In this document: positions 9,062 to 63,142 of the stretch, piece after piece
Layout of the letters: each line of letters starts with the position of its first letter
How positions within the stretch are numbered: the stretch's first letter is position 1
Assembly: GCA_965552055.1 (NCBI GenBank)
Contig: CBEVQO010000002.1
Location: 64,001 to 128,000, forward strand
DNA length: 64,000 nt
Direction of reading: 5' to 3'
Origin: an uncultured bacterium
GTDB taxonomy: Bacteria; Hydrothermota; UBA3073; NMUJ01; CBEVQO01
Made by a program: the position numbers and the translations under genes
The notes under the pieces: generated by a model
The model's database searches: none
Seen by the model: the letters and a program-made list of their open reading frames with translations, nothing else
What the model was told of the DNA's origin: nothing

Positions 9062-9063
9062 AT

Positions 9064-42755: not shown

Positions 42756-42799
42756 TACAAAAATTTTTAATAATTTTCCACCTTTGTCAACCAAAAATT

Positions 42800-44776
42800 T
42801 TATAAAATTTTTAGGATATTTTTCACTTTTGTAAGTCCTTCTTTTGCTTTATCGTAATGTGGGTCAATTTCAAGTGCTTTCTCAAACGCCATCTTCGCCT
42901 CTTCATACCTGCCCATCCCAAATAATGCTTCGCCCTTCCATCTCCATGCGATTTCGGCATCCTTCTCGGGATTTAATTTAATAAATTTCTCTGCTGTTTG
43001 AAGAGCTTCTTCATATTCTCCCAGCAAACAGCATGCTTCTGCAAGACCAAGCCAGCCATCGGGCAACATGGGATTCAATTCAACAACCCTGCAAAATGCC
43101 TCTTTCATCTCTTTGTATTTCTCCATATATCTATAAGTCCAGCCAAGTTCTGCATAAATCTCCCATTTATCACCTTCATATTTTAATGCTTCTTTAAAAG
43201 ATTTCTCTGATTCTTCGTAGTTTCTTAATTCAAAGAAAACTCTTCCTTTGTAAAACCATGCTGTTGAGTGCTCTGGCTTCATTTCGGTTACTTTATCGAG
43301 TATTTCAAGTGCTTTTTCAAATTCGCCAATTTCAAATAATGCCCTTCCTTTTATAAAAAGTGCCCTTACATCTTTTTCATCATTTTTTAATATTTCGTCC
43401 GCTATTTCAATTGCGCTCCAGTATTTTTTAAGTCCGATAAACGCACTTGCTTTGAGATGAAGTGCTTCCATATTTTTCTCTTTTTCAAGAACCGCATTAC
43501 ATAATTTTATCACTGATTGGTAATCTTTTGTCTCTTTCAACATAAGTTCTGCTTCTCTGATTATTGCATCTTTGCATGCTGGGTCAATCTTCCTTGCTTT
43601 CCTAAAAGCATTTATTGCCTTTTTATTTTCACCCATCTCTTCCAGCACTTTTCCAAGATAATACCAGTAAACGGGATTTTTCTCATCGTCTTCTATAGCT
43701 TTTTCTATACAATATTTTGCTTCCTTATAATTTCCTTCTTCCATGTATTCGATTGCATCCGAGAAAATCGTTGAAGCCGAATATTCTTCTTCTGGCAATT
43801 CTATTTTCTCCTTTATTATTTTATCTGATGGATTGCCGAAATGAGCATATCCGCACCATACTATTGACCTCTTTCTATAAAATTCATTGCGAAGTTCCAG
43901 AAGTATATGTCCTATTGTTTCGCCTTCCAGCATCTTTCTGTAAAATTTTACAGCAAAATTTGCACTATCATGTGAGGGAATTTTAAAAAATGAACCTATA
44001 TAATGTCTCACACCTGCTTCAACAAATCCTTTCGCAATATCAAAAGAAGTTTCACATGCATTTGCAAATATGAGGAAAACTTTTTCTAAAGGTAAATCTT
44101 TAACATCTTCCGCTTTTAACTTCTCTCCTTTGTAAAGTTTCCAGCCATCTTTTTCCGCATGCCCTATGTAATGAATTATGTTATATTTAAATAGATTCGC
44201 TTTGATTTCCTGTTTTGATGCCGTAAATCCGCCTCGCAAATCAAGTGATTTAATTCTTTTCTTTTTCTTCAATCTGCTTAATCTGTTGATGATTTCAATT
44301 GTTTCCAATTTTGCATCTTTTTCTATATCTCTATCTTCTGTTGGATTTTTTATTATAAGCATTTTTAAGGGTGGGTAAATTTTTTCGAATTTTCTTTCTC
44401 TTTTTATTCTTATAATGCGTGCAATTTGGAATTTAAGTCCCCAGAATTCATCATCATATATGATTTCATAAGGAATTTGTAAAAGCCCCTCTTCAACTTC
44501 AAAAAGCAATTTGCTTCCTTCTCTCAATCTTTTAAAAGCGGGTTCAAATTCTTTAAACATAACTTTAAATAAAGTTTTGCCAATAGATTTTATTTCCTCT
44601 GTAAACTCATCAAAATCTTTGCCCGGTATTACAATATTACATTTTTCATAAAATTTTTCGCAAATTTCCTTTATATTTTCTATTTTTATTTTTTTCTCGG
44701 TAATTCCTGCGTATCGGTGGATTTTAGGTCGCACAAGTATATAATCGTCGATTTTAAAAAGATGAATTTCTTTCAC
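42800..44776 (-). CDS. CHAT (caspase-like) protease with C-terminal TPR repeats
   Basis: LLQIPYE, IIHYIGHA (catalytic His), FANACET (catalytic Cys), W..Y.HFGNP; multiple TPRs. Confidence 0.9.
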   Translation of the reverse strand: MKEIHLFKIDDYILVRPKIHRYAGITEKKIKIENIKEICEKFYEKCNIVIPGKDFDEFTEEIKSIGKTLFKVMFKEFEPAFKRLREGSKLLFEVEEGLLQIPYEIIYDDEFWGLKFQIARIIRIKRERKFEKIYPPLKMLIIKNPTEDRDIEKDAKLETIEIINRLSRLKKKKRIKSLDLRGGFTASKQEIKANLFKYNIIHYIGHAEKDGWKLYKGEKLKAEDVKDLPLEKVFLIFANACETSFDIAKGFVEAGVRHYIGSFFKIPSHDSANFAVKFYRKMLEGETIGHILLELRNEFYRKRSIVWCGYAHFGNPSDKIIKEKIELPEEEYSASTIFSDAIEYMEEGNYKEAKYCIEKAIEDDEKNPVYWYYLGKVLEEMGENKKAINAFRKARKIDPACKDAIIREAELMLKETKDYQSVIKLCNAVLEKEKNMEALHLKASAFIGLKKYWSAIEIADEILKNDEKDVRALFIKGRALFEIGEFEKALEILDKVTEMKPEHSTAWFYKGRVFFELRNYEESEKSFKEALKYEGDKWEIYAELGWTYRYMEKYKEMKEAFCRVVELNPMLPDGWLGLAEACCLLGEYEEALQTAEKFIKLNPEKDAEIAWRWKGEALFGMGRYEEAKMAFEKALEIDPHYDKAKEGLTKVKNILKIL

Positions 44777-44782
44777 AAATTT

Positions 44783-44809
44783 ATTATAATTTGCATTTTA
44801 TATTGTCAA
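44783..44809 (-). promoter_or_regulatory. Promoter TTGACA-N15-TATAAT, probably leaderless
   Basis: 6 nt before the GTG at 44776. Confidence 0.7.
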
Positions 44810-45108
44810 GAATTCTTCCAGTGAGGATGTGAGAGTCCCATTGTGAAAAATGTTTCAACGATATTTGCGATAAAATGCGAAAATTTGTGGGGAAATTTTA
44901 ATTTGCCTTCCAGTAAGAATTCAACAGTTTCGTGAATCAATATCCCTAACTTCTCAAACACCGAGCATTTTTGAAAAATGTAAATCTTATCATAAATCCA
45001 TGCACCCGTTTCCTTTTTCAATTTTATAACCTCTCCCTTTTCATCATGCAAAATAAGATTCACATCAGTAAGAACAATTTTTAAAGGAAAGTTTATTTTC
45101 TTTTTCAT
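44806..45108 (-). CDS. Hypothetical protein with an HExxE...H motif
   Basis: LIHETVE...SHFIA; ATGA overlap. Confidence 0.6.
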   Translation of the reverse strand: MKKKINFPLKIVLTDVNLILHDEKGEVIKLKKETGAWIYDKIYIFQKCSVFEKLGILIHETVEFLLEGKLKFPHKFSHFIANIVETFFTMGLSHPHWKNS

Positions 45109-45485
45109 TCTCGTTGAAATTTGCCATTTTTATTTATTTCTATAAGAATTTTTTCAATTAGTTTATCAACTTCTTTAAGGCGAGACTCCTTTATTTCGAG
45201 ATCATAAGGAAATCCTTCAATCCATTCTTTTAATTCATAAAGAACATCTAAAATTTGCCCATCCGCTTTTTCTTCACAATAACCAAAGATAACTTCTTTT
45301 GCTTTTTCCCACCCGTTAATAAGTACTTTCCTAAACACTCTAAGCAGGAAATCTTTTTGTTCGTCTATACTTAATGTTATATTACCTTTCTTTATATCCT
45401 CAAATATTTTGCGTAGCTTTTCACAAAATTCAGATTCATCGCGAATGCGAAAAATCTCTTTGCAAATTTCCTTCCACTCTCTCAT
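45105..45485 (-). CDS. Hypothetical helical protein
   Basis: Start at MREWK follows an AAGGAGG RBS. Confidence 0.65.
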   Translation of the reverse strand: MREWKEICKEIFRIRDESEFCEKLRKIFEDIKKGNITLSIDEQKDFLLRVFRKVLINGWEKAKEVIFGYCEEKADGQILDVLYELKEWIEGFPYDLEIKESRLKEVDKLIEKILIEINKNGKFQRE

Positions 45486-45525
45486 AGCTCCCTCCTTTTT
45501 CATAACATTATTACATCTCATTACT

Positions 45526-47730
45526 TCACATTTTATTTTTAAGAATATTTAACCTTTGGTAGAATTTTCGATTATCTTTTAAATCGTCATAAGTTGAAAT
45601 AATCAACACTTTCCTTTCAAGGCGGGTACTTTCATCTATTTCTGAAAGTTTCCTTATCACAAAACCTGCTTTTTTATATTTTTCTTCTTTCTCTTTCTGA
45701 TGCCTTAAATATTTCTCATCTTCCATTCCATAGTGCTCCCATAGTATTTCTTTATCTTTGGATATTAATTTAAAATCGGGACATACTCCAATGTCGAGAT
45801 ACGCGGATAAAGGTTCATATTGATATTCTATCTCTGCTTTGCGCAAGAGATTAGCAATTAAGCATTCCTGCCAACTTCTTACTTTTTCTCCATTCAAAGT
45901 AATAATTCTCAAATTTTCGGGTAGCAATCTCACATCTATAGGATTATCAAACAAATATGTTTTTCTTTTTAATAGCTCGGAAGCACTTACATTGAGTAAA
46001 TTTGCAATGTGGTCTTCTACTATTATATAAAGCCGCCTCTGAGCACGAGTTACAGCGGTATACATCATCTCTCTCGATTTAAAATGCTTTAAACCTTTGG
46101 GAATAACCAATAACACATTTTCAAATTCACTTCCCTGACTCTTATGTATAGTTATGGCGTAAGCATAATCTAAATTTTCTCCTAACTGATTTAAATAAGC
46201 AAATTTCTTTGGAGGAAAGAAAAATTTAACTTTTCCATTTCTTAACACATATCCCATCATTCCGTTAAATACTTCTATTTTATAATCATTTTTAGTTTGA
46301 ATCACTTTGTCTCCCATATAAAACTGTTTTTGTAACACAATATCTGCTTTCTTTGCAAATCTGGATTCTTGGCGTAAAAAGAGACTTAAATTATAGGAGC
46401 CATTTTCACCTTTAATTCTAGTTGGGGTTAGAATCTGTAATTTATCCTCATATACTAAAAATTTATAAAAACCCTTTGCATCTACAGAAAAATCGTTTTC
46501 CCTGAGTAATTCCTCAATTGCTTTTTCCACCTCCTTTCGTATATTATTTTTAACAACTTTTACAGTTATGACTTCTTTCTCATCGGTTCTTATTGAAAAC
46601 TTATCCGCGTTATCTTCTGAAATTTTATTACTGAATAATTCATTTAATATTTGTTCTTTTATTGCATAAGGTGTATCTGTGAGAAATATTTTAGAGAACT
46701 CAACTATCTTTTTACATTCAGTACGAAGAATTTTTTCTAATTTTACAATACAATCCTTGTGGTTTTTCTGGAGATATTGATAAAGGTCATAGAAAGGCTT
46801 GCCAGCATCTACAGGCGGAAGTTGATTCACATCCCCTATCATTATAAAATACTGTAAATTGTTTTTATTGATAAGGGTAAGTAGCATCCCTAAAGTTTGA
46901 GTATCTACCATAGATGCTTCGTCTATAATTATGGCATCAAGCTTCTTTTTGCGTGATTCTTCTGGAACTTCTTTCAAAATAAAATATTCAAAGTCATAAA
47001 AATTGCGTAACTCAGTTGATATAAATCTGTGTATGGTTTTGACTTCAAGGATTCCTTTCAACTTTTCCATCGTTCTCATGGCTGCTTTTCCAGTAGGAGT
47101 TAATACTTTTATTTCTTTTAATCCATTTTTTAACATTGCTTTTACAAGTGCTTTTATTACATGTGTTTTTCCACTTCCAGCAGGGCCTGTTAAAATACCC
47201 ACTCTCTTTCTAAGAAGAGATTTAACCGCATTTATTTGCTCTTTTAATATTTCCTCGTATTCTTCTTGGATTAAATTTACGAATGCGTTTTCTTTCAAAT
47301 CTTCTTTGATTTCGTCCTCTGTTACATCAGCTTCAGGTTGTGGCAAGCTATTCAAATATTCGATTATTTCCCCTATTCTTTTTTCAAATCTTTTTACCTC
47401 TTTTAAAGTATAAACCCAAATTTCATCTCCATTTACTTTTACTTTATCTATTTCTACTTTTTCCTGAATGAAATTTTCGTATTCCTTTATTTTGTTTATA
47501 AACTCCTTCTGATTTATATCATAAATATCTTCTCTGTTTCTTCTTTTGAAATACTCCATAATTTCTAAATCTGTTAAAGATGTATGCCCTTCTTTTAAAG
47601 CTTGCTTTAATAAAGTAATCAACAATGCTCTTATTCTCTCCTTGTTTACACTATCAAATTTTTTGTTAAGTTCTTCAAAGCGCCTCTTTTCACCAAAATC
47701 AATTTCCTCAAAAGTTACAGGTTCTAATAA
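45526..47730 (-). CDS. RecD-like SF1B helicase with a C-terminal PD-(D/E)xK-like nuclease (3' part of a split gene)
   Basis: GPAGSGKT, DEASM, GDVNQLPPV, YAITIHKSQGSE, YTAVTRA; VRSWQE..IAN...YEP...PDF...WEHYGM; homology extends upstream of the TTG at 47625 to LEPVTFEEID. Confidence 0.85.
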   Translation of the reverse strand, partial: LLEPVTFEEIDFGEKRRFEELNKKFDSVNKERIRALLITLLKQALKEGHTSLTDLEIMEYFKRRNREDIYDINQKEFINKIKEYENFIQEKVEIDKVKVNGDEIWVYTLKEVKRFEKRIGEIIEYLNSLPQPEADVTEDEIKEDLKENAFVNLIQEEYEEILKEQINAVKSLLRKRVGILTGPAGSGKTHVIKALVKAMLKNGLKEIKVLTPTGKAAMRTMEKLKGILEVKTIHRFISTELRNFYDFEYFILKEVPEESRKKKLDAIIIDEASMVDTQTLGMLLTLINKNNLQYFIMIGDVNQLPPVDAGKPFYDLYQYLQKNHKDCIVKLEKILRTECKKIVEFSKIFLTDTPYAIKEQILNELFSNKISEDNADKFSIRTDEKEVITVKVVKNNIRKEVEKAIEELLRENDFSVDAKGFYKFLVYEDKLQILTPTRIKGENGSYNLSLFLRQESRFAKKADIVLQKQFYMGDKVIQTKNDYKIEVFNGMMGYVLRNGKVKFFFPPKKFAYLNQLGENLDYAYAITIHKSQGSEFENVLLVIPKGLKHFKSREMMYTAVTRAQRRLYIIVEDHIANLLNVSASELLKRKTYLFDNPIDVRLLPENLRIITLNGEKVRSWQECLIANLLRKAEIEYQYEPLSAYLDIGVCPDFKLISKDKEILWEHYGMEDEKYLRHQKEKEEKYKKAGFVIRKLSEIDESTRLERKVLIISTYDDLKDNRKFYQRLNILKNKM

Positions 47731-48260
47731 TCTCTTCCTTTTTCTTTGAAATATAAATATAATTCCTGATAAGGTATTACAAAAATAGGATTTTCAAAAT
47801 CAACTTTTAAATCAAAAGATACATTAATCTTGTTTTTCTTACTGTCACTACTTATATTTGAAATTTCTTTTATTTTTAGACATGCTGCTATTATTTTATC
47901 CTCTGCTATTGGATTTTCTCTAATGTGTACCAGAGCATATCCCCCTTTCACTAACTCGAGCATTTCCGTTATCTCATCTTCCTTTCCTTTAGTTACTCCA
48001 TAAAACGCTCCCCAGAGTCTTCCAGTGCTGAAAAGTTCTTTTTCAATACCACAAGGTGGATTTTGAATTTCTTCTATTTTCTTTCCCGCACAATTCTCGC
48101 ATTTTTCTGTTCTTTTCTTATTTGCCCAATCCCAACCGTATTTTGTTGATTTTACCCAGTTAAAAGATTCGCAATAGACATTTTCCTTGGGATTACGGCA
48201 TATTCTCCCGTTCCAACCCATATCGTGCCATGCTACCATTACAGCAAGATGTTTAAACAT
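47724..48260 (-). pseudogene. N-terminal fragment of the RecD-like helicase (internal deletion plus frameshift, or an evolved split)
   Basis: WHDMGWNGRICRNP..N.YCESF matches the N-terminus of 51747-54593; stop follows PYQE..YFKEKGRDY. Confidence 0.7.
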
Positions 48261-48278
48261 AACCCCCCCCTTTCTTTA

Positions 48279-48941
48279 TTAAAGTTTTTCTAATAAAATA
48301 TCAAAGCGCGCAATTATACTTTTTTCTTTTCTAATTTTAATGGTATAAACTTTTTTCTCAAAAAGTAAAGTTACAGGTTCTTTTGTCAATGTAGCGATTA
48401 GATTTCCATTTGCAAATAATAATGCTTCTGCATCTTCTATTGGTTTATTTTCTTCTTTGTCCTTTATTTCAATTAACTTCAGATTTATTTTATCATCTTT
48501 TGTCTGTACATCGAGTGTAACTTTTATCTTTTCTGTTTCGCTCTCAATTTTCCATGCGTTTGGCAGTTTTTTACCGCTCCGGGTAGTGATAAATGCTCTT
48601 TCTTCTATATGGGTGCTTCCGTATAACTGGCGTGTTGCTATCTGAAACAGCTTTATGGATAACAAAAGATGCAGGACAGTTGAACACATTTCTTTTTTCT
48701 TCTCTCTTTCCAGATATTTCTTTAAACTTTTCATTTCCATCACTTTGCGAAAACATGCATCACATTCTGTAAGATGCTTCTCAAACACTTCACGCAACTC
48801 ATCCGGCAGAGTGCCATCAACATATCCTGCTATCCAGTGTTCGTCATACTCTTTACAATCGGGTATGGGCTCCGTTTTTCTCATCTCTCTCAATGCCCTT
48901 AAGAGCCATTCAATATCATCGTTGTCAAAATCAGGACACAT
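48279..48941 (-). CDS. zf-HC2 (ZAS-type) anti-sigma factor
   Basis: C....IAGYVDGTL......FEKHLTECDAC; directly downstream of a sigma-like gene. Confidence 0.85.
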   Translation of the reverse strand: MCPDFDNDDIEWLLRALREMRKTEPIPDCKEYDEHWIAGYVDGTLPDELREVFEKHLTECDACFRKVMEMKSLKKYLEREKKKEMCSTVLHLLLSIKLFQIATRQLYGSTHIEERAFITTRSGKKLPNAWKIESETEKIKVTLDVQTKDDKINLKLIEIKDKEENKPIEDAEALLFANGNLIATLTKEPVTLLFEKKVYTIKIRKEKSIIARFDILLEKL

Positions 48942-49833
48942 TTTCCCTCCTTTTTATATTTTTGAATTTCTTTTCAATCTCCTTTCTTACTCTGTGAATA
49001 ATCTGGTCAACATAATTACGATTTATTCCTAAAAACTCTGCTATTTGTTCATAGCAGGGTCTCCTTGCACTCTCCGGGACAGCTTTCCCCTCCTTTAAAT
49101 ACTTTATTATCTGCCATTCTATTTTTGCATCCATTAAAACGAGTTCATCGGTTATTTCATCAATCCTTTTCTTTGTCAATTTCATTATGGTTAAAACTTC
49201 TCTCCTATCTTCAAGTATATTGAATTCAGGCCATAACCACAATTTAAAGACGATTCTTTTAAGAGGGGGAAGTTTCTCTATTTCTTTTCTTATTTCCCTG
49301 CAAGTCATTTCCGTTATAATTTTATTTTCTTCGGTTAGATAGCCAATCAGTCCTTTTGGAGGCTTTGTTTTAGCTCTGGTAAACTTCTTTTCTAACTCTT
49401 GCTCTCTTTTGCTTTTCTTCTCCGGAGACAATCTTTCTTCAATCTCTTCTAAATTTTTTTCATCCATTTTAATTTCGCGTAATTTTCTTATAAGAATGCG
49501 TGGAAGCCAATTTATAAAAATTCCTGTTATCCATGTTGTGAATTTAGCTTTTGTTCTGTGATTTGGATCGTATCGTTTTATTATTTCAAGATTTGACAAT
49601 AAATAATTATAAAGGAAATCTCTGCAAATATCTTCTTTTTCATCAGAATCTAACTCCTCGAGTATCTGGAATCCCATCTCTTCTTTTCCTCTGAGTTTAC
49701 TCAAAATAATGCGTTCAATAAGTCCCTTTAAAACAGAGATATACTTGTCGAGCGCAAAAATTGCTTTTTTGCAGGCATCTAAATCACAATTATGACACTT
49801 TTCTAATTGCTCTCGTGAAACTAACTCATTCAT
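48931..49833 (-). CDS. ECF-like sigma-70 family factor
   Basis: Region 2 RYDP...KFTTWI; region 4 IEKLPP..R.VF.L and YEQIAEFLGINRNYVDQIIHRVRKEI. Confidence 0.75.
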   Translation of the reverse strand: MNELVSREQLEKCHNCDLDACKKAIFALDKYISVLKGLIERIILSKLRGKEEMGFQILEELDSDEKEDICRDFLYNYLLSNLEIIKRYDPNHRTKAKFTTWITGIFINWLPRILIRKLREIKMDEKNLEEIEERLSPEKKSKREQELEKKFTRAKTKPPKGLIGYLTEENKIITEMTCREIRKEIEKLPPLKRIVFKLWLWPEFNILEDRREVLTIMKLTKKRIDEITDELVLMDAKIEWQIIKYLKEGKAVPESARRPCYEQIAEFLGINRNYVDQIIHRVRKEIEKKFKNIKRRENVS

Positions 49834-49850
49834 GGTTCCCCCTTCACCTT

Positions 49851-49877
49851 ATTTTACATCAAATACAGCGTTGTCAA
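49851..49877 (-). promoter_or_regulatory. Promoter TTGACA-N15-TAAAAT for the second sigma module
   Basis: Hexamers upstream of a GAAGGGGG SD. Confidence 0.65.
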
Positions 49878-49969
49878 TATCATTTTTTATTAGTTTAGAG
49901 AAAGATGCACGCAAACTATTCAAATAAACATTTATTGTATCTTCGAGTTTGTTTATAGTGTTATCAATG

Positions 49970-50179
49970 TCAATAAGTGCATCTCTCATCTCTTTGAATT
50001 TTTCCTTTATCTGCTGAATTTCCACATCCCGTTTTATATATTGGAGAAAGATAGAAAGTCGATGGAGATACTAGCATAACATTCTTTTCGTAGGCGTATG
50101 CAGGCTTAATAGGTATAACTTTTCGCCACCCGACTATTTTTATCCTGTCACAGCAATTAAATTGTTGATTCTTACCCAT
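49970..50179 (-). CDS. Small hypothetical protein
   Basis: AAGGAGGGG RBS before the ATG. Confidence 0.45.
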   Translation of the reverse strand: MGKNQQFNCCDRIKIVGWRKVIPIKPAYAYEKNVMLVSPSTFYLSPIYKTGCGNSADKGKIQRDERCTY

Positions 50180-50203
50180 CTCCCCTCCTTTTGATTTGCA
50201 TCT

Positions 50204-50596
50204 TCAATTAAAATCATCTACTTCGTCCTTTGTGTTTAACTTTACAAAATCTTTTAATTCTTTCTCTTCTGCTTCTTCCAGTAAAACATAACAATTTCTG
50301 TTCTTGACTTTTTTAAATTCTAACAATGCAATTTCGGCAACATCAAAGAATTTCTGGAGCCCGCTGTAAATCCTCTCTGCCTCTTCTTTTATCCTTTGAG
50401 GAACTCTCTCTGGATAGGCACACATTATTCGCACCATTTGATTTAAATCCTGCAAAAATTTTACAGGAATAACCAGAACATCATATCTCACAAATTCTCT
50501 TTTTTCATTTAACATTATTAAAATATGATAACCCAGCAATTTACTCAATATCTTCATTGTATTTTTAAATGAACCTCCACTTTTTTCAATCCACAT
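50204..50596 (-). CDS. Hypothetical protein
   Basis: GGAGGT RBS; overlaps the ClpX-like gene. Confidence 0.65.
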   Translation of the reverse strand: MWIEKSGGSFKNTMKILSKLLGYHILIMLNEKREFVRYDVLVIPVKFLQDLNQMVRIMCAYPERVPQRIKEEAERIYSGLQKFFDVAEIALLEFKKVKNRNCYVLLEEAEEKELKDFVKLNTKDEVDDFN

Positions 50597-51716
50597 ATCT
50601 ACCTCCCCTTTTAGATTTGATTTTTACATTTAATTCGCCATTTTTTACATCGACAATTATTTTGCCTTCTTTTTGCTGACCGAATATTTCAAATGACATT
50701 TCTTCGAGATGACGCATTATAACGCTTTCTATCGCTCTTGCCCCTGTCTGACGCCTTACAGCTTCTTCTACAATGAAATCTTCTGCACGGGGAGTAATAC
50801 GAATCTCAAATCCTTCTTCCTGAAATTCGTTTTTCACCTCCTTCAGTTTCAAATGCAATATTTCTTTTAATGTCTTTTTATCAAGTGGCTCAAAAACAAT
50901 AATTCTCTGAAAGCGGGCAATGAGTTCTGGCAGAAATCCATAAGATTGAAACTTTGTTACATCTTCGGCGGTATACTGGTCTATTTCGTATGCTATTTTA
51001 TTTTCCACACTTTTTATTTCTTTTAAGAAACCTATTTCCTTTTTAACACTGTGGGTTAAAAATCCGCTAAATGCTCCTATTGCGAAAAATAAGATATTTG
51101 AAGTATCGATGTGACCTTCGAGTGACAAATCGTCTCTTCCGTAACTTACTTTAGAGCCTTCAACGAGTTTTAGTAATTCGCGCTGAACCCCGTATCCTGA
51201 TACATCCTTTGTCGTACCAGCACCGGCAAATCTAATATTGCTGTGACAACCCGCTATCTTGTCAAATTCATCTATCGCAACTACTCCGAATTTCGCAAGA
51301 AGCACATTGCCATGTGCAGCCTCTATCAATTTGTAAGGTATATTTAACACACTTTCGCCAACATAACCAGTTTCGGAATATTTCGTGATATCAATTATCA
51401 CATAAGGTAGTTTTAAAATTTTACCGAATAACAGTTCTATTATATAGGTCTTGCCGCATCCAGTTGGTCCCATCAATAAATAATTTGTCTTTGGTGGTAG
51501 ATTTTTCTTTTCTCCGCTTAATATTTTCTTTACTCTTTTGAAATGGCGATATGCAGCTACGCACATAGCTTTGCGAGCACGCTCCTGACCTCTGTAGCCA
51601 AGTTCCTCCAGCTTTTGATAAAGCTCCTGAGGAGTATAAAGCGGAGCAGACAGGAGTTTATTTATCGCAGCCTCATTTGCCTCAATATGTTCTCTATATC
51701 GATAAAATGGCTTCAT
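50586..51716 (-). CDS. ClpX-like AAA+ ATPase lacking the N-terminal zinc-binding domain
   Basis: GPTGCGKT, ETGYVGE, IDEFDK, DVSGYGVQRELLK, IGF loop, PELIARF and TGARA motifs. Confidence 0.88.
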   Translation of the reverse strand: MKPFYRYREHIEANEAAINKLLSAPLYTPQELYQKLEELGYRGQERARKAMCVAAYRHFKRVKKILSGEKKNLPPKTNYLLMGPTGCGKTYIIELLFGKILKLPYVIIDITKYSETGYVGESVLNIPYKLIEAAHGNVLLAKFGVVAIDEFDKIAGCHSNIRFAGAGTTKDVSGYGVQRELLKLVEGSKVSYGRDDLSLEGHIDTSNILFFAIGAFSGFLTHSVKKEIGFLKEIKSVENKIAYEIDQYTAEDVTKFQSYGFLPELIARFQRIIVFEPLDKKTLKEILHLKLKEVKNEFQEEGFEIRITPRAEDFIVEEAVRRQTGARAIESVIMRHLEEMSFEIFGQQKEGKIIVDVKNGELNVKIKSKRGGRYVD

Positions 51717-51746
51717 TTCACCTCCCCTTATATTATTACCTATTTC

Positions 51747-54593
51747 TCAAGTTTTCTTACATAACTTTTCTAAATTTCCAAACAAATTTGTTTTCCTTTC
51801 TTTGATGGAAGAATGATGTATCTCCAGTAGTTTTGAAATATCTTCTTCTGTGATCAAATAAACACGATTGCGTGCCCTTGTTACGGCAGTATAAAGCATC
51901 TCACGGGTTAAAAAACTTTTGCTTAATCCTTTTGGAATTACAACTATCACATTGTCAAAATCACTACCCTGACTCTTATGGATGGTAATCGCATAAGCGT
52001 AATCAAGTTGTGAGAATTCATTTCTCTTATATTTAACCTCCCGATTTAAACAATGAAAATATATTTTCCGCTTTTTCACATAGATTTCTTTATCTTTCAC
52101 ATAGCCTATCATACCATTGAAAACCCATTTATCATAATTATTTACATTTTGGATAACCTTATCCTTTATTTTTTCTCTACACCAGAAATCATTCACATAC
52201 ATTTCGTCCTTCAATTCATCTGGTATAAATTTTGATTCACTCCTTATAAAATGATTTATCAATAAAGATGAAATTCTTCCTTTTTGACGGGTAGGTGTCA
52301 AAATTTCGAGTGCATCTTTTATGACCTCAAATTCAAAGAAATCGCCTTCACCATACTCTTCCATTATAACTTCTATTGCTTTTTCGATTTCTCCTTTTAT
52401 ATCTCCTTTCCCTATATGTTTAACAGTAACAACGGGTTTTCCTTCCTCATTTTTCAAACTATAAATCTCACCTTTAATTTCGTCACCGATTTTTATCCGT
52501 TCTTTACTTTGCATCATTTCTCTGAGAACTTTAATTTTCTCTCTTTCGGGTACACTTTCGAGGAAAAGTTTTGAGAATTCGGTTATTTTCTTTTGATTTG
52601 CTCTATAAATTTTACTCAATTCAACTATTTTGCCTTTTCCTGTATTTTTAAAGAAATTGTAAATATCATGAAATGGCTTGCCTGCCTCTACCGGGGGCAA
52701 TTGATTTACATCTCCCACAAATATAATGTGTTCCAGTGTATGCTTTTTTATTATCCTGAATAAATCTGCAAGCAATGATGTGCCAACCATTGATGCCTCA
52801 TCAATTATGAGTGCATGTATAGACAATTTTTTATCTTCTGGTATTCTCCTTTTTAAAACATAATAATCAAAATCAAAAAATTCTTTCATCTCTTGGGCAA
52901 TCAATCTATGAATTGTTGTTGCTTTTTCTCCTCCTATTTCTTTATTTATTTTTACAGTTGCTTTACCTGTTGGAGCCACGATTCTAACTTTTGCAAGTCC
53001 ATTTATCTGCAATGTATTTACTATTGCCCCAATTGTATGTGTCTTACCGCTCCCAGCAGGTCCAGTCAAAATACTAACATTAGAACTCAATACCTCTCTT
53101 ACTGCTGATATTTGCTCCAAATCAAATTTATCATCTTCGGGATACCTGTAGCCGATAGTGCCTTTTTTGAGTAATTCCTTTATCATTTCTTCTATTAGTT
53201 TTTCATCTTCTTTTACATCCTTCAAAGTAAAAATAATATCTTCTTCTCTTCTCTCAATTTCTACCTTTTCTCTGATGTAATCTTCGTATTGAGTAATCTT
53301 TTCAATAAAAGTATCAATGTCCATCGAAAGTTTTTCTCCTTTTTCCTTTAAATCGTTTAATGTAATAGAGGTATTGCCTTTTTTGAGTTCCTCTTTTAAA
53401 ATCTTTATGAGTAAAGCCCTTATTCTTTCTTTTGAGTAAGGAGAATAAAATCTTTTTCTGTATTTTTGCTCCCAGTTGTCTATCTCATCAAATGTTATAG
53501 GATGAATATCTTCTTTTGGATTGTAAATCATTTCTTCGCACAATAAATAAGGATTATTCTTTTCAACGAGATTTTTAATGTTTATAAAATTCTTTCTGAT
53601 TTGTTTCTTTATCTCTACCAGTTGTGATGGTAAAATTTCGTAATAAATTGCATAATCGTATAAGAATTTATGGAAATTATCGTTTTTGTGTATGATTTTT
53701 TCAAGTTCTTTTCTCATTTCTTCTTCACCTTCTTCTCCTTTTTCTTCCCATTTTGTAATGAATTGGGAGTATATTTCTCCAAAAGGCTCTTTGCCTTCCT
53801 TCAGCACATACATAACCGCTGGTAAGCCCGGATAAATAAATTTTCTGCCCTCAAGTTCCTCCAGTGCCATCTGAATCCGTGCAGGAAATTCTTCAAGCCT
53901 TAAAGCATCTTTTCTGAAATCCATATCTTCAATATATGCTTTTAGTTTCCCATCATCGTATTGTAAGATTTTCTCCAATTTTTTCAACGCCTCTTTAAGT
54001 ATAACACATGAAATTTCTGTTACAACGAAGTTTGCCATATTGCTAAAATATAACTTCCATTCGGGTCTAATATCAAGAACAAGGTCATCGGGAAAATCCT
54101 TGCCATATTCTTCAAAGTATTCTATCATCTCCTGATACGGAAGGATAAAAATTATATCTTCGGGCTTGAACTCAAAATCTATGAGTAACCCCTTTTTATC
54201 TTCTTTTAATTTTATATCGGAAGCTTTTGCACATCCTACTATTATTCTATTTTCGGAAAGTGGATTTTCACGGCAATAAAAGAATAAATAAGTACCTTTA
54301 CCCATCCTGCTTAAAAATTGATAAGTTTCTTCTTTTCTTAATCCTTTTATTCCGAAAAATTTACTGCTTCCTTTAAATTCACTGAAGAGTCCTATTTCCC
54401 ATACACAAGCTTCCCAGTTTAATGGAGGTTTTTTATCGGCAAATTCACCGCATCTTAATCTATCTCTGCTATATTTTCCGCGTCTTATATGCGAAAATGA
54501 TTCGCAATATTTATTCGCTAGCGGATTCCTGCAAATCCGCCCATTCCAGCCACTATCATGCCAGCATATAAGTATGGTAAGACATTTCATCAT
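51747..54593 (-). CDS. RecD-like SF1B helicase with an N-terminal WHD/Cys domain, no C-terminal nuclease
   Basis: WHDSGWNGRICRNP..N.YC; GPAGSGKT, DEASM and YAITIHKSQGSD; start reset to the ATG at 54593 after GGAGG. Confidence 0.88.
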   Translation of the reverse strand: MMKCLTILICWHDSGWNGRICRNPLANKYCESFSHIRRGKYSRDRLRCGEFADKKPPLNWEACVWEIGLFSEFKGSSKFFGIKGLRKEETYQFLSRMGKGTYLFFYCRENPLSENRIIVGCAKASDIKLKEDKKGLLIDFEFKPEDIIFILPYQEMIEYFEEYGKDFPDDLVLDIRPEWKLYFSNMANFVVTEISCVILKEALKKLEKILQYDDGKLKAYIEDMDFRKDALRLEEFPARIQMALEELEGRKFIYPGLPAVMYVLKEGKEPFGEIYSQFITKWEEKGEEGEEEMRKELEKIIHKNDNFHKFLYDYAIYYEILPSQLVEIKKQIRKNFINIKNLVEKNNPYLLCEEMIYNPKEDIHPITFDEIDNWEQKYRKRFYSPYSKERIRALLIKILKEELKKGNTSITLNDLKEKGEKLSMDIDTFIEKITQYEDYIREKVEIERREEDIIFTLKDVKEDEKLIEEMIKELLKKGTIGYRYPEDDKFDLEQISAVREVLSSNVSILTGPAGSGKTHTIGAIVNTLQINGLAKVRIVAPTGKATVKINKEIGGEKATTIHRLIAQEMKEFFDFDYYVLKRRIPEDKKLSIHALIIDEASMVGTSLLADLFRIIKKHTLEHIIFVGDVNQLPPVEAGKPFHDIYNFFKNTGKGKIVELSKIYRANQKKITEFSKLFLESVPEREKIKVLREMMQSKERIKIGDEIKGEIYSLKNEEGKPVVTVKHIGKGDIKGEIEKAIEVIMEEYGEGDFFEFEVIKDALEILTPTRQKGRISSLLINHFIRSESKFIPDELKDEMYVNDFWCREKIKDKVIQNVNNYDKWVFNGMIGYVKDKEIYVKKRKIYFHCLNREVKYKRNEFSQLDYAYAITIHKSQGSDFDNVIVVIPKGLSKSFLTREMLYTAVTRARNRVYLITEEDISKLLEIHHSSIKERKTNLFGNLEKLCKKT

Positions 54594-54624
54594 AGCGGCA
54601 CCTCCATTACTATCTTCTCTCCTT

Positions 54625-55323
54625 TCAAATATCCAAAAATTTTGTCGTTCGTTTGACAGCGTTTTCAATCTCTCTCATATCCTGTGCTGTTAGCGGAGGA
54701 GAATATATACCCCTTACCACCCACAATCCCGATTTTCTTATTTCCCATTTCGGAGAATGTAACCCAAGCCAGTTAGAGGAAGGTTTACATAGCGAACAAT
54801 TTGCCAAAGTACCTATGAGCTTGTTTTCTATCTCTTTCCTGTTGCTTTCATTATCCCATAAAATAAACCTGAAACTGAATTGAGTGCGCAATATTTGGGT
54901 TATTTTTTCTTCTATTTCTTTCTCTTTTTCAATATCTCTCAAGTGACCGAATCTCTCTCGATTTTTTCTTGGAGTAAAATCAATTTCCCATACTTCGAGA
55001 TATGGGTCGTTTTCTCGATTCAACAATGCCCTGCCTAAATTTTTTCTAAAGATACTTCTATCGGAAGGTTTCGGTTTATTTCTATTCCATTCTGTTCTCC
55101 TATTTATAAGAAAATGGTCAGCGATGCGTGATTTAAAATTTTCTTTCTTATGTGTGCCAACACGAACAATCCTCATCTTTTCGCCACCATGTCCCCATTT
55201 CTCTCCTTCTTCATAGAAAAAATAAATTCCACTATCGGGTAGTGTAACAATATCAAAAGGATACTTTATTACAGGTAGTGTCTCCAGAATTTCATGTAAC
55301 CATTTACATTTTTCTTCTATCAT
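54625..55323 (-). CDS. GIY-YIG-like nuclease
   Basis: GIYFFY...RVGTH...SRIADH...SIFRK...E..LI pattern. Confidence 0.6.
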   Translation of the reverse strand: MIEEKCKWLHEILETLPVIKYPFDIVTLPDSGIYFFYEEGEKWGHGGEKMRIVRVGTHKKENFKSRIADHFLINRRTEWNRNKPKPSDRSIFRKNLGRALLNRENDPYLEVWEIDFTPRKNRERFGHLRDIEKEKEIEEKITQILRTQFSFRFILWDNESNRKEIENKLIGTLANCSLCKPSSNWLGLHSPKWEIRKSGLWVVRGIYSPPLTAQDMREIENAVKRTTKFLDI

Positions 55324-55347
55324 CGTTCCTCCTTATTATTAAATCTT

Positions 55348-55554
55348 TTATTCCTGTTCGACTTTGGGTTCCCAATTTCCGCACACTTCGTTATCTCTCC
55401 TTTTATCCTGCCAGTATCCGCACCAGCCCTCTGCAGATGTTTCGCCCTCTTCACAGGTAACTTCAATATACCCTGTCGCAGGATTGTAGTAACTGCCACT
55501 AAAATATTTGCAAGTAGCACAACATCTTATATCTGGTCTGATTGAATAACGCAT
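55348..55554 (-). CDS. Small Cys-rich, putatively metal-binding protein
   Basis: CCATC..C..C..C; AAGGAGGGG RBS; TAATG overlap. Confidence 0.7.
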   Translation of the reverse strand: MRYSIRPDIRCCATCKYFSGSYYNPATGYIEVTCEEGETSAEGWCGYWQDKRRDNEVCGNWEPKVEQE

Positions 55555-56330
55555 TACCCCTCCTTTTTTATTTTTACAAGTTTTTCACCTATTTCCTTTA
55601 TCCCCAATTTTTCAAAATATTTAATGATTTCGCTCGGTGTCAGGGGTGCTATCTGCCATATTAAACTATCAAGATGCAACATTGTTATTCTTTTATCGTT
55701 TTTCCTGATTTCAGTTAAAATCTCTGTCCATACTTGCCTTATTTCTTCATCCGATTGTATGCCAAATAACTCTTTGGTAAATTTTCTGACCCTTGAATCA
55801 ACCGGAATGGGAATCGGTGTAAAATCAAAATTGTGCTCACCTTTTATTAACAGTGCGATACCGAGGCATTTCATCGCAAAACAAATTGTTTTCGCAGATT
55901 TATTCTGCCCCATTATAAAAGCAAGTTTATTCCATATATTCAGGAAATCTGTTGCAATACTTTGTGGAGTGCTTTCCCATATTTCTCTTGCAAGTTCACT
56001 TCTAAAATATTTTTCAAGGCGATTTAATTTTGCTGTTCTCATTCTTTCATTTTCGTAGAATCTTGCAAGATAAAGATGAAGTTCTTTTAATGTGGAAGGT
56101 GCAGGTAGATTCTGGAGTTTCTGTCTTATCACGGGCCAGTATGCTATTTCTGCTTTGCCTTTTAGCTGATAATCATTCAGTCCCACAGCGAGCATAAGAT
56201 TTGCGAATGCACCGAATTTGTATCTGTCAGCAAATATGTGAAGATGCTTCCACTCGGGCTCATTATGTACAATGCTGTCCCATGCATTATAAGGTATTTG
56301 ACCCAATATTTTGGCAATTTCTCCTTTCAT
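55554..56330 (-). CDS. N-glycosylase/DNA lyase (archaeal AGOG-like)
   Basis: YQLKGKAE..YW, KTICFAMK, IPIPVDSRV and HLDSLIW motifs. Confidence 0.82.
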   Translation of the reverse strand: MKGEIAKILGQIPYNAWDSIVHNEPEWKHLHIFADRYKFGAFANLMLAVGLNDYQLKGKAEIAYWPVIRQKLQNLPAPSTLKELHLYLARFYENERMRTAKLNRLEKYFRSELAREIWESTPQSIATDFLNIWNKLAFIMGQNKSAKTICFAMKCLGIALLIKGEHNFDFTPIPIPVDSRVRKFTKELFGIQSDEEIRQVWTEILTEIRKNDKRITMLHLDSLIWQIAPLTPSEIIKYFEKLGIKEIGEKLVKIKKEG

Positions 56331-56342
56331 TTCACCCCTCTT

Positions 56343-59702: not shown

Positions 59703-59715
59703 TTTACCCCTCCCA

Positions 59716-60402
59716 TTATAATGTTGTGAGGTCTAATTTTATTTTCAGTAAAATTTCTTTTTCTTTTCTTATGATGCATAGGAAACTCTTTTTCTCAATT
59801 GGGAAAGTTACCTCTTTTTCACCCACCGCTATGAGATTGGCATCTTCATACACCTCAAACACAAAATCTTTAATTTCTTCTTCCTTCTCTTTATCCTTAA
59901 CCTTTTCCACTATTAATTTTATTTTGCCATCTAAATTTACAAATTTTAAAGTTGCATCTACTTTTTTTGAAGTTACTTCATATATGCTTTCCCTAAGCGT
60001 TGCTGTCCTGTGCTTGTGAGGTCCTCCTCGCAGTGCACGACGCCTTGCCTTCATTCTAACCTTTGCGGAAATGTTCCATAGATTAACAATGTTTAAAAAA
60101 TATGCTCCACGGCGTGTTATTAAAAAGGCAATCACAGGTAGTTTCGCAAGATTCTTTATCCTTTCTTTTTCTTCAGCCGATAATTTCATTTCTTCATCCC
60201 AGCAAAAATCTATAACCCTCTGTAAACAATAATCGCAAACCTCAAGATGACTGATGAATTGCAGATGTTGATAAAGAGGAAGTTTTCCTTTTAAAAATTT
60301 CACAATATAATCATCATCGTATTTATCACATTTTCTGGATAATGCCCTTTCTCTGTAAACAGAAGATAGCCATTGGAGTGCCTTTTCGAACTCGTCCTTC
60401 AT
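59716..60402 (-). CDS. zf-HC2 (ZAS-type) anti-sigma factor, paralogue of 48279-48941
   Basis: C...IVKFLKGKL.....FISHLEVCDYC; shared C-terminal motifs KDKE, NLIA and IRKEK. Confidence 0.8.
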   Translation of the reverse strand: MKDEFEKALQWLSSVYRERALSRKCDKYDDDYIVKFLKGKLPLYQHLQFISHLEVCDYCLQRVIDFCWDEEMKLSAEEKERIKNLAKLPVIAFLITRRGAYFLNIVNLWNISAKVRMKARRRALRGGPHKHRTATLRESIYEVTSKKVDATLKFVNLDGKIKLIVEKVKDKEKEEEIKDFVFEVYEDANLIAVGEKEVTFPIEKKSFLCIIRKEKEILLKIKLDLTTL

Positions 60403-61079
60403 CCTATCTCCTTTTCAACTTCTTTCCATAATTTCTCCAATTCTTTTTTGATGTCGGTGAGAATCCTGCTCACATAATTTGGAGTTTTGTTGACTATGCG
60501 GGATATCCGGCGGGGAGGGAGACCCTCCCCTTCTAAATAACTTTGAATCCATACCCTCGCTATGAACTTCTTTGCGCCACGAAGCTTCTGCAGGTAGGCG
60601 TCAACTTTTGTTCGAAAGAGTTTCAGTTTCTTTTCAAATCTTTTTTCTTCCTCTTCCTGTATTATCTCACCTTCAAGGTCATCCGTTACTTTTGAAGAGA
60701 TTAAAGATTCTACATCACTATCTTCGTCTTTTGCTAAATCAGTAAATGGTATTATCTGTGGTTCTTTCTTTTCTTTACGAAGCTGGTTCATAAGCCAGTA
60801 TTTGAAGCATTTATTACTCCATGCGAGAAATGAGCCTTTTTCTGGATTGAATTTTTTAATTTGTTTTCCCATAATGAGATAATAGTACAAGAATCTACAA
60901 ACGAATTCTTCGATTTTTGTGGAAGAAAAGTAAATGTTCTTTGAGATAAGCAATCGCTTGCATCTTTTCCAGAACAGCTCTATTACTTTTTCGATATCAC
61001 CAAACATTTTGGCACAAGATTCATCTTTACACCTATAACATTCCATTGCGTATTTTTTGATTATAATGTCTTTCACCAA
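60399..61079 (-). CDS. ECF-like sigma-70 family factor, paralogue of 48931-49833
   Basis: KKFNPEKGSFLAW (region 2); RISRIVNKTPNYVSRILTDIKKEL (region 4 HTH). Confidence 0.7.
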   Translation of the reverse strand: MVKDIIIKKYAMECYRCKDESCAKMFGDIEKVIELFWKRCKRLLISKNIYFSSTKIEEFVCRFLYYYLIMGKQIKKFNPEKGSFLAWSNKCFKYWLMNQLRKEKKEPQIIPFTDLAKDEDSDVESLISSKVTDDLEGEIIQEEEEKRFEKKLKLFRTKVDAYLQKLRGAKKFIARVWIQSYLEGEGLPPRRISRIVNKTPNYVSRILTDIKKELEKLWKEVEKEIG

Positions 61080-62264
61080 TCATTTTATACCCGCTGTGGA
61101 TATGTCAAGCAATTTTTCGTCTATCTCGAATCCAAGATGATTTCTCATTCTGTATTTTTTGATGACATTTTCGCCCCTCTTTAACCCATAAAGGTCTGCC
61201 AGTGTCCATCTTTCTTTATATTTGAGGAATTTTATTTTGTCTTCGCATCCCCAGTATTCGAGCAATTTTTTCGCTTCATCCTGAGTATGGGGACGCAATT
61301 CAATAGCTGCAAATGTCCTGCCTGCTCTCATAAATGCAGGGTCTATCTCCCTTTCGATATTGGTGGTTATTATGATGCGTGAAGGTATCTGCACTATTCC
61401 GCCTGTCAGTGAAAGGAGGTCACCTGTAACATCAATCCCTGTTTCTTTGCGTGGCTTTACAAATTTATCGAGGTCATCGAGCAAAATTATCATACCATCT
61501 GCTACTTCTTCAAGGAAAGATAAAGATTTCAAAACAGGTTCCTGACGCACCACGAGCAATTCGTTTTTGCCTGCGAATCTGCAAACATGATGCGCAAACC
61601 AGCTTTTGCCAGTGCCACATTCACCAAACAGGAAAAGAACAATCTCATTCGAATTAAGATAATCCTCTATAAACTGCTTTACATCACCATATTTTTCTTT
61701 AATGACAGGATATTTGAGATTCAGCTCTTCTGGTTCATCACAATGCACATATTGTTTGAACCATAATGATTTGGGCTCTCCGAAATCTCGCTCTACAACC
61801 ATAATTTTCACATTTATTCTTATGTATTTGGGTTTGACTTTATCCTTAACTTTGTATTTTTTTAGCCATTTTTCAATTTTCTTTCCAAAGATTTCTTCTG
61901 CTTCTTTACTGCAGAAAAATGCAAAGATATCAACAATTGCTACTTTGTTTTCCGCAACTTCCATTCTGAAGAAACAATTAGCAAATCCTTTAAGAGAAGG
62001 AAATGTCACCATAACATCGTAACCTCGACCTTTATTTACTATTATTTCCCTTTCTTTATCCAGTTTCTTCATCTCCTCATCGAATTCTTTAAAGAATTTC
62101 TCTTCGGAACATGATACCATCATTGAGATTCTTCTCGTAAATAAGTTCTTGTTTGCGTCAAGGAGTTTCAACAGCTTTATCACTCTGTACTGTCTTAAAA
62201 AGCTATTTACAGGCTCAATATCGTCTATATCTAAATTTATCTGAAATTTATCTTTTAGAGTCAT
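61080..62264 (-). CDS. AAA+ ATPase
   Basis: GECGTGKS, LLDDLD, ITTN and IDPAFMRAGR motifs. Confidence 0.88.
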   Translation of the reverse strand: MTLKDKFQINLDIDDIEPVNSFLRQYRVIKLLKLLDANKNLFTRRISMMVSCSEEKFFKEFDEEMKKLDKEREIIVNKGRGYDVMVTFPSLKGFANCFFRMEVAENKVAIVDIFAFFCSKEAEEIFGKKIEKWLKKYKVKDKVKPKYIRINVKIMVVERDFGEPKSLWFKQYVHCDEPEELNLKYPVIKEKYGDVKQFIEDYLNSNEIVLFLFGECGTGKSWFAHHVCRFAGKNELLVVRQEPVLKSLSFLEEVADGMIILLDDLDKFVKPRKETGIDVTGDLLSLTGGIVQIPSRIIITTNIEREIDPAFMRAGRTFAAIELRPHTQDEAKKLLEYWGCEDKIKFLKYKERWTLADLYGLKRGENVIKKYRMRNHLGFEIDEKLLDISTAGIK

Positions 62265-62864: not shown

Positions 62865-62879
62865 TTCACCCTCCTTTTA

Positions 62880-62906
62880 TTGCCCGCCCCGATGGGGCAA
62901 GATTTA
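62880..62906. repeat. Short intergenic hairpin repeat, copy 1 (TTGCCC-GCCCCGATG-GGGCAA)
   Basis: Related to the two copies further right. Confidence 0.65.
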
Positions 62907-62917
62907 AATTCTATAAC

Positions 62918-63142
62918 TTATGCACTTTTCTTATTGATTTTTGCTGCAATAGAAGCGAGCATCGCTATTATCACACCAGGTAAGGAAAATAAGAGCATCC
63001 AGAGTGCTTTACCATAATCGTACACAGCATCGGCTACTCCTTTTCCTCCGTAGGGAATATGTACTGCCTCCGAATAAAATGCAATAGAAATTATAAGACA
63101 AATAGCGAACCATATCCAACCAATGACACTTAATGCTCTCAT
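62918..63142 (-). CDS. Small membrane protein with two TM helices
   Basis: Two hydrophobic segments; AAGGAGGGGG RBS. Confidence 0.7.
   Translation of the reverse strand: MRALSVIGWIWFAICLIISIAFYSEAVHIPYGGKGVADAVYDYGKALWMLLFSLPGVIIAMLASIAAKINKKSA

Follow-up and report, generated by a model that had tools for sequence, protein, structure and literature searches.

A sigma factor, zf-HC2 anti-sigma and CHAT protease trio as a candidate transcription switch in a probable mosaic island of an uncultured Hydrothermota bacterium

Introduction

The genes between positions 42,800 and 62,264 of a 64,000-nt stretch of DNA from an uncultured bacterium of the phylum Hydrothermota (GenBank assembly GCA_965552055.1, contig CBEVQO010000002.1, positions 64,001 to 128,000) raise the question of whether they form one antiphage system or a regulatory switch placed among genes of other origin. 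The whole 64,000-nt stretch is referred to here as the window, and its contig as C2. The bacterium probably lives at hydrothermal vents, and the names of homologues point to a WOR-3 bacterium as the probable host. The genes encode two divergent sigma factors of the extracytoplasmic function (ECF) type, each followed by a zf-HC2 anti-sigma protein, together with a CHAT-TPR protease, two RecD-like helicases, an AGOG-family glycosylase, a nuclease-like protein, a ClpX-like ATPase and a leucine-rich repeat (LRR) protein. An initial annotation, made from the letters alone, took them as a single circuit in which LRR or TPR sensing triggers anti-sigma proteolysis and DNA-attacking effectors. The present analysis points, with about an even chance of being right, to a mosaic accessory island in which a core trio of sigma factor, zf-HC2 anti-sigma and CHAT protease would form a transcription switch gated by the protease, with the genes that act on DNA as likely exchangeable cargo behind the two sigma pairs.

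Results

Recurrence of the sigma/anti-sigma/CHAT trio

A genome-wide scan with a four-row CHAT alignment yielded 78 CHAT loci. Genes for a sigma factor and a zf-HC2 protein stand beside the CHAT gene in 14 of the 18 best loci versus 1 of the remaining 60, and 13 of the 14 trio loci keep the order sigma, anti-sigma, CHAT. The CHAT protein of locus L245 was one of the query rows, and the count without it is 13 of 17; at locus L242 almost no upstream flank is available. In a CHAT-domain tree of 57 rows (the first 50 loci and seven others, with G004 dropped, and with a long-branch warning), the focal protein falls into a 20-row clade (SH-aLRT 90) together with all 14 trio loci and five others. The clade spans Nitrospirota, Thermodesulfobacteriota, Omnitrophota, Myxococcota and other bacteria. 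From the sigma side, 20 sigma-anchored regions were inspected; one of them (G206) holds the trio, as sigma, anti-sigma and an N-terminal CHAT, and most of the others are ordinary ECF pairs. CHAT proteins in general are not sigma-linked; the focal subfamily is. No description of a split, soluble sigma/zf-HC2/CHAT trio was found in the openly accessible literature searched.

A second module is present in the same genome (L113, C2:342741-356001). It consists of a sigma factor, a 143-aa beta-sandwich protein without a zinc finger and a TPR-CHAT protein of 765 aa, and continues with two small open reading frames (ORFs), an M48 peptidase, a DUF1232 protein and four dynamin-like genes, three of which match LeoA/LeoBC. 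The two small proteins flanking this CHAT gene have an N-terminal KRFEILK motif in common, possibly a cut or docking site.

Other arrangements of TPR and CHAT domains were also seen. In several genomes of the phylum (L144-L153, L159, L176, L179 and L180), a conserved cluster encodes two or three secreted TPR-CHAT proteins with shared small partners, and no sigma factor lies near these clusters. A Myxococcales protein (L250) joins a CHAT domain of the focal subfamily to a P-loop NTPase-like region; its gene stands opposite a sigma/zf-HC2 pair, as another soluble sensor variant. The soluble TPR-CHAT trio of L030 (G031, 4896-12688) has a 562-aa anti-sigma with extra domains and is followed by a DUF1232-like ORF, a DUF445 gene and small proteins, which we take to resemble EcsC.

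The CHAT-TPR protease

The focal protein carries an N-terminal CHAT domain with a C-terminal TPR array directly after it. Its catalytic dyad, His206/Cys241, aligns with the SAVED-CHAT-like chain 8tl0, and both residues are invariant in 15 aligned CHAT domains of relatives. No membrane helix is present in the focal protein (maximum hydropathy 1.04). Among the 14 trio relatives, 11 have a membrane helix behind the CHAT domain, one is cut by a contig end and two are soluble. Without such a helix, the signal received by the focal protease would be cytosolic.

Two sigma pairs lie near this single CHAT protease. The initial annotation had noted that the CHAT gene has its own promoter and might not belong to the island; the promoter is indeed there, and the doubt is countered by the closest CHAT relatives, which adjoin sigma and zf-HC2 genes. 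Because 14 of the 18 closest loci show this neighbourhood and the linker arginine of the anti-sigmas is conserved (see below), its separate promoter does not set the CHAT gene apart, and it is likely a partner of the sigma pairs. The gene is accessory, being found in 3 of 250 genomes by direct query and in 59 of 272 by Pfam, and these counts led us to reject it as a core gene.

Sigma and anti-sigma proteins

The two sigma factors score 42.2 and 33.8 bits against TIGR02937, just below and below its cut-off of 42.9, and a search of 1.84 billion representatives with sigma2 returned only sigma2 itself. In the sigma tree the two form a sister pair (94/91), which joins three CHAT-adjacent sigma factors with moderate support (80/88); two further CHAT-adjacent sigma factors (G025 and G004) fall outside this group.

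Zinc ligands are intact in both anti-sigmas, and neither has a transmembrane helix (maximum hydropathy 1.37 and 1.45). The structure model of anti-sigma2 consists of zf-HC2 helices, a low-confidence linker and a C-terminal beta-sandwich. Its mean predicted local distance difference test score (pLDDT) is 72 and its predicted template modelling score 0.47; pLDDT falls below 50 at residues 96-126 and reaches 82-92 at 131-210. On this model the linker is predicted to be disordered. A Foldseek search with the model gave no match at E<=0.001, with weak Ig-like and FnIII rows only, and a profile search with the anti-sigma family matched zinc anti-sigma chains only, and weakly. A word search with anti-sigma2 found one homologue, 93% identical and full length, from another sample.

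Across 16 aligned anti-sigmas of the family, conservation is strongest at the zinc ligands, at a few positions of the beta-sandwich and at one arginine, the sole such residue in the linker. The arginine occupies one column in 15 of the 16 proteins, that of anti-sigma2 being two columns off, usually in the context Pro-x-x-hydrophobic-Arg-Gly/Ser and about 100 residues from the C-terminus. It corresponds to Arg125 in anti-sigma1 and to Arg121 in anti-sigma2, where the model places it within the low-confidence segment between the zinc helices and the confident beta-sandwich. We propose this arginine, on the basis of its conservation and modelled position, as a candidate cut site of the protease. 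Separases cleave after Arg, and the cut sites of Craspase are not Arg (PMC11506125), so the assignment is put forward as a hypothesis. The upstream proline of the family motif is missing in both anti-sigmas of the locus, which also speaks against it.

Gene layout

All ORFs named in the initial annotation were recovered, on the minus strand and in the order it gave, and family scans agree with its labels CHAT+TPR, RecD-like helicase (AAA_30/UvrD_C_2), zf-HC2 (in anti-sigma2), AGOG, LRR, ClpX-like and AAA (Table 1). Each of the sigma, anti-sigma and helicase genes has a paralogue, as had been noted. The identities (42% for the helicases, 29% for the anti-sigmas and about 25% over 110 aa for the sigma factors) indicate that the duplications are old.

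Table 1. Features of the locus, with positions in the window
Feature	Position	Strand	Basis
CHAT-TPR protease, 658 aa, core gene	42800..44776	-	PF12770 E 1.7e-16 and TPRs
Housekeeping-type promoter-like site TTGACA-N15-TATAAT; CHAT GTG start 6 nt downstream, likely leaderless	44783..44809	-	Promoter scan
100-aa ORF, HExxE motif, cargo	44806..45108	-	Weak IrrE/M78-like lead; no Pfam match
Helical ORF, 126-138 aa, cargo	45105..45521	-	ORF list, Pfam scan
Helicase B, C-terminal piece: SF1B/RecD-like helicase and predicted nuclease, PDC-S68-like	45526..47625	-	PDLC05065 E 3e-105; tblastn
Helicase B, N-terminal piece of 178 aa with Cys/His (WHD) motif	47724..48260	-	PDC-S68 positions 1-76; 37% to helicase A 26-192
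Anti-sigma2, core gene	48279..48941	-	PF13490 E 1.2e-7; structure model
Sigma2, divergent ECF-like, 300 aa, core gene	48931..49833	-	TIGR02937 E 6e-11; tree
Promoter-like site TTGACA-N15-TAAAAT ahead of sigma2	49851..49877	-	Promoter scan
69-aa ORF with ribosome-binding site	49970..50179	-	ORF list
130-aa ORF	50204..50596	-	ORF list
ClpX-like ATPase, cargo	50586..51716	-	IGF loop present, N-terminal zinc domain absent
Helicase A, 948 aa, PDC-S68-like, cargo	51747..54593	-	PADLOC model match; no C-terminal nuclease
PDC-M57B-like protein, without usual small partner, cargo	54625..55323	-	PADLOC PDC-M57B E 1e-64
Cys-rich ORF, 68 aa	55348..55554	-	ORF list
AGOG-family N-glycosylase/DNA lyase, cargo	55554..56330	-	PF09171 E 1.8e-24
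LRR-only protein of 1119 aa without signal or membrane helix	56343..59702	-	24 repeat units
Anti-sigma1, duplicate core gene: HxxxCxxC zinc site, linker Arg125, beta-sandwich	59716..60402	-	Family alignment
Sigma1, divergent ECF-like, likely leaderless GTG start	60399..61076	-	TIGR02937 E 2.4e-8; tree
Promoter-like site TTGACA-N15-TAAAAT inside AAA gene 3' end	61082..61108	-	Promoter scan
AAA ATPase, likely last gene of upstream run, outside switch	61080..62264	-	phrog_14322 (phage family) E 5e-27

A promoter scan with a 17-bp spacer gave chance level only, since this genome favours a spacer of 15 bp: the pattern TTGACA-N15-TAnWAT occurs at 284 sites versus 45 at spacer 17. At 116 of the 284 sites a start codon lies 5-7 nt downstream, which suggests leaderless transcripts. 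Such 15-nt-spacer sites precede sigma1, sigma2 and the CHAT gene; that of sigma2 had already been recognised in the initial annotation. The same annotation listed the AAA ATPase gene first. Sigma1 has its own promoter-like site within the 3' end of the AAA gene, which is thus more likely the terminal gene of an upstream run. From sigma1 to the 69-aa ORF the intergenic gaps are -11 to 31 nt. Four transcription units are likely from these sites and gaps: the upstream run ending in the AAA gene, sigma1 to the 69-aa ORF, sigma2 to the 100-aa ORF, and CHAT. For the 100-aa ORF, the IrrE/M78-like lead has rank 14 and score 0.90, with PF06114 in 39% of members.

The co-oriented run reaches about 8 kb past the 42800..62264 interval, up to window position 70336 (C2:134336). 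This upstream part (62286-64000 and C2:126286-134336) holds two diverged pairs of AAA_5 and DUF2201 metallopeptidase/VWA genes together with orphan ORFs. None of the ORFs listed was recognised as an integrase, and there is no tRNA nearby. A GC-rich element of 18 nt is found in intergenic DNA at window positions 62880, 63187 and 63772, one copy being inverted; no further copy exists genome-wide at two mismatches, and the element may mark cassette junctions. On the other side, an RmuC-family gene at 41706-42794 flanks the island. The antiphage system Shield reportedly has an RmuC domain.

Probable cargo behind the sigma pairs

The PADLOC search that the initial annotation had proposed as a check did return matches: both helicases match the candidate system PDC-S68 (E 2e-100 and 3e-105) and the nuclease-like protein matches PDC-M57B, with neither a full-length helicase nor PDC-M57A among them. 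The best helicase homologues are 1101-1246 aa long and include Methanotorris and Methanocaldococcus proteins. Helicase A stops where the C-terminal nuclease of these homologues starts. Helicase B had been described as one gene fused to a nuclease; its nuclease-bearing piece is real, and the gene is split by a frame change into two ORFs in different frames, with about 195-210 middle residues of the family missing as judged by tblastn against full-length homologues. Neither is therefore the single ORF of 1100-1270 aa, from WHD domain to C-terminal nuclease, that is expected of PDC-S68 from model lengths and homologues. No description of PDC-S68 was found in the same literature search.

A metagenome scan over one sixty-fourth of the collection gave 542 helicase relatives, of which the best 80 loci were kept. 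A full N-terminal motif is present in 10 of the 80, and several relatives sit among what we take to be BREX or type I restriction genes. None of the 80 loci, many of which are short, has a profile match for a sigma factor, zf-HC2 or CHAT; three show a bare zinc motif without a profile match. Helicase A was not found in 40 relatives, and its single-protein scan of the genome contigs gave no match. Plasmid searches gave one partial helicase match and none for the nuclease-like protein.

The nuclease-like protein had been labelled GIY-YIG. It may carry a GIY-YIG-like motif, seen by eye; no Pfam or PDB sequence match was found, and its only match is PDC-M57B (E 1e-64). Two orthologues occur in 200 genomes, each with a partner of 132-138 aa and one among restriction-modification-like genes. 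The PDC-M57A model PDLC04712 has no match in the genome (the control was positive in 1 of 14). AGOG was considered as a PDC-M57A protein and rejected, having no PADLOC match.

The ClpX-like protein scores 229 bits against the ClpX NCBIfam cut-off of 359, with the match starting at profile position 55; being below the cut-off and without the N-terminal zinc domain, it does not belong to ClpX proper. Orthologues occur in 9 of 271 genomes of the phylum. The genes in their fetched flanks (2-20 kb) are unrelated and for the most part housekeeping; a sigma pair, a CHAT domain and a helicase are all missing there, and two small proteins match the TPR part only. The orthologues stand alone, and a private ClpX of the switch was therefore rejected. 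A canonical-looking ClpX paralogue is encoded on contig C6. The ClpX-like subfamily is widespread, about 370-430 aa long and apparently without the zinc domain, and coexists here with canonical ClpX.

In the LRR protein, 17 type-A units share a near-invariant framework, with 1.6-2.7 bits of variation at four strand positions, which face the ligand in the general LRR pattern. This distribution fits a receptor role. The gene is made of near-identical DNA repeats, with amino-acid change concentrated at the four positions of each unit, as would be expected under repeat shuffling and diversifying selection. Two weak LRR relatives occur in 200 genomes, both without the trio.

These results bear directly on the view, that of the initial annotation, of one integrated 19-kb antiphage system. 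Worked out in full, the LRR protein would sense, the anti-sigmas would be destroyed by the CHAT protease together with a private ClpX, and DNA would be attacked by the helicase, nuclease and glycosylase. Co-orientation and the tight spacing from sigma1 to the 69-aa ORF, the helicase behind both sigma pairs, and the precedent of a protease-then-Clp route in CalpL/T/S are in its favour. However, none of the 78 CHAT loci holds the helicase, AGOG, nuclease, LRR, AAA or small-ORF genes, with a distant Clp ATPase in one, and co-occurrence is equally zero from the cargo anchors (0/80 helicase, 0/9 ClpX-like, 0/2 nuclease and 0/2 LRR loci), in counts where many flanks are short and the compared genomes all lie outside the family of the host, so that a lineage-restricted system could escape them. 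Given the absent co-occurrence, the incompleteness of the two helicases and the matches of two cargo types to PADLOC candidate families that travel independently, the single-system view of switch, helicases, glycosylase, nuclease, ClpX-like, LRR and AAA genes is unsupported, and we regard it as quite improbable. The helicases, the nuclease and the other neighbours are likely swappable cargo.

The broken helicases may instead point to a decaying island, in which the trio is interrupted by insertions, the CHAT protein has been stripped of membrane sensor and partners, and much of the cargo is relic. The split helicase B and truncated helicase A are joined in this respect by the partnerless PDC-M57B-like gene, by the anti-sigma1 pair, which no protease adjoins, and by the shifted Arg motif of anti-sigma2. 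Against this, the catalytic dyad and the zinc ligands are intact, as are the ribosome-binding sites and the tight overlaps between genes; the anti-sigma2 homologue of 93% identity, from another sample, is full length; the 3.4-kb repetitive LRR gene is in frame; and one public hydrothermal-vent run covers 28 of the 30 bins of the stretch with near-identical contigs. Coverage by other samples is thin at the helicase B break, and joints seen in the LRR gene, which may come from misplaced repeats, were left aside. Decay of the island is considered unlikely, and the mosaic island with a switch at its core is kept as the likelier reading.

Discussion

Comparison with known systems

Three described circuits come close to this arrangement. 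In Craspase, Csx29 cuts Csx30 and thereby frees CASP-sigma (PMC10028731). The locus resembles it in having a cytosolic CHAT and TPR protease with a His/Cys dyad (H206/C241), an ECF-like sigma factor and a soluble two-domain sigma inhibitor, the C-terminal domain of which could dock on the protease, with further degradation probable after cutting. It differs in the reversed domain order, with CHAT N-terminal to TPR here, and in the inhibitor, a zf-HC2 protein and not Csx30. The sigma score against the CASP-sigma model NF041236 is 17.7 bits, far below the cut-off of 100. No Cas7-11 or CRISPR array is linked to the protease: CRISPR-like arrays lie on contigs C1 and C6, with one doubtful repeat on C4 and none on C2, and the eight RAMP matches of the genome are all on C1. 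With arrays and RAMP genes on other contigs, and the nearest CHAT relatives adjoining sigma and zf-HC2 genes, the CRISPR-independent CHAT/anti-sigma/sigma link put forward by the initial annotation is supported.

DdvA, a fusion of anti-sigma, membrane helix and periplasmic TPR-CHAT, controls with DdvS a defence island of Myxococcus xanthus (PMC11506125). The locus shares with it a zinc-binding anti-sigma domain at the N-terminus, with an ECF sigma factor adjoining, as well as TPR and CHAT domains and neighbouring defence genes; in contrast to the transmembrane fusion, anti-sigma and protease are separate soluble proteins. In the third circuit, CalpL, a SAVED-Lon protease gated by cA4 from type III CRISPR, cuts the anti-sigma CalpT, which exposes a degron; cellular proteases finish it and the sigma factor CalpS is released (10.1101/2024.05.08.593097). 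The protease of the locus is CHAT-TPR, not SAVED-Lon; a SAVED search of the whole genome gave no match, and neither did its controls.

PDC-S68 and PDC-M57 are PADLOC candidate systems (10.1101/2024.01.29.577857), to which the locus shows strong hidden Markov model matches, with helicases that are not full length and PDC-M57A not found. Caspase genes with a sigma factor of the ECF type and a protein containing TPRs have been described in the EACC2 context, a different one (PMC8195603). With respect to the trio family itself, the anti-sigma has the zinc site, the linker Arg and the C-terminal beta-sandwich; the focal CHAT gene neither follows it directly nor encodes a membrane helix. By analogy, the locus would operate as the circuits of Craspase, DdvA and CalpL do, although it belongs to none of them. 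New here are the soluble form of the trio, the two sigma pairs heading defence cargo and the surface-diversified LRR.

Proposed mechanism and its alternatives

Directly observed are which genes are present and in what order, the unbroken dyad and zinc ligands, the missing membrane helices, the recurrent trio and the conserved linker Arg; from these we infer the following steps. The CHAT-TPR protein would already be present before it is needed, expressed from the housekeeping promoter of its gene. A ligand in the cytosol, most likely invader-derived, would bind to its TPR array, or in trans to the LRR protein, and so align the dyad. The protease would then dock on the C-terminal beta-sandwich of the anti-sigma and cut after Arg121 in anti-sigma2 or Arg125 in anti-sigma1. 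The remaining zinc-finger fragment would be cleared by a Clp protease, for which host ClpX would be enough and the local ClpX-like gene optional. The freed sigma factors would transcribe a regulon that probably includes island cargo. As to history, the sigma/anti-sigma pair would be the product of an old duplication, and helicase B and two ORFs would have arrived between anti-sigma2 and CHAT.

Several observations weigh against this reading. The CHAT gene lies 3,502 bp from anti-sigma2, and in most relatives CHAT follows within about 0-300 bp. The 14 trio loci amount to about seven independent lineages, and among 41 CHAT-anchored regions of the phylum one has a sigma factor with zf-HC2 by profile (one further region has a sigma factor with a small non-zinc partner). 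The focal sigma factors and CHAT sit on long branches, for which the tree tool warns of false joins. The cut after the top 18 loci was chosen after the list was known; the CHAT tree gives the trio grouping without it. The cargo already stands behind housekeeping-type promoters, so the sigma factors may not control it. Finally, the genes inspected downstream of the relatives' trios are envelope/secreted or housekeeping genes, and a defence output is thus suggested only by association.

The last two points, with the absence of the island's DNA-acting genes from all 78 CHAT loci, would also be accounted for by a working switch for non-defence stress (misfolded protein, heat or envelope damage), with defence-like cargo accumulated at an insertion hotspot behind strong promoters. 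This alternative is improbable in our view, though a little less so than decay. The runs headed by both sigma pairs hold PADLOC candidate families, the second trio of the genome precedes Leo-like dynamins, the LRR varies at its binding-face positions and the sigma factors are unusually divergent, none of which is in its favour.

Starting from the mosaic island with its trio switch, a bolder proposal may be made, for which we claim only a low probability: a cytosolic immune switch independent of CRISPR and of nucleotide messengers, in which CHAT-TPR, alone or with a surface-diversifying LRR receptor, would detect an invader protein and cut two anti-sigmas at the conserved Arg, so that two sigma factors turn on a swappable defence payload. 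If true, pattern recognition would be wired directly to transcription via a caspase. Gating of sigma release by a CHAT protease has been shown for Craspase (PMC10028731) and proposed for DdvA (PMC11506125).

We advise against cataloguing the genes of these 19 kb as a single system. For the trio family, the analysis names a candidate substrate, singles out a residue at which it may be cut and supplies small soluble components of a probable thermophile, with which the mechanism can be tested in vitro; for most CHAT proteins we know of no substrate. If the trigger is an invader protein, the trio would add a sensor-to-transcription route to bacterial immunity.

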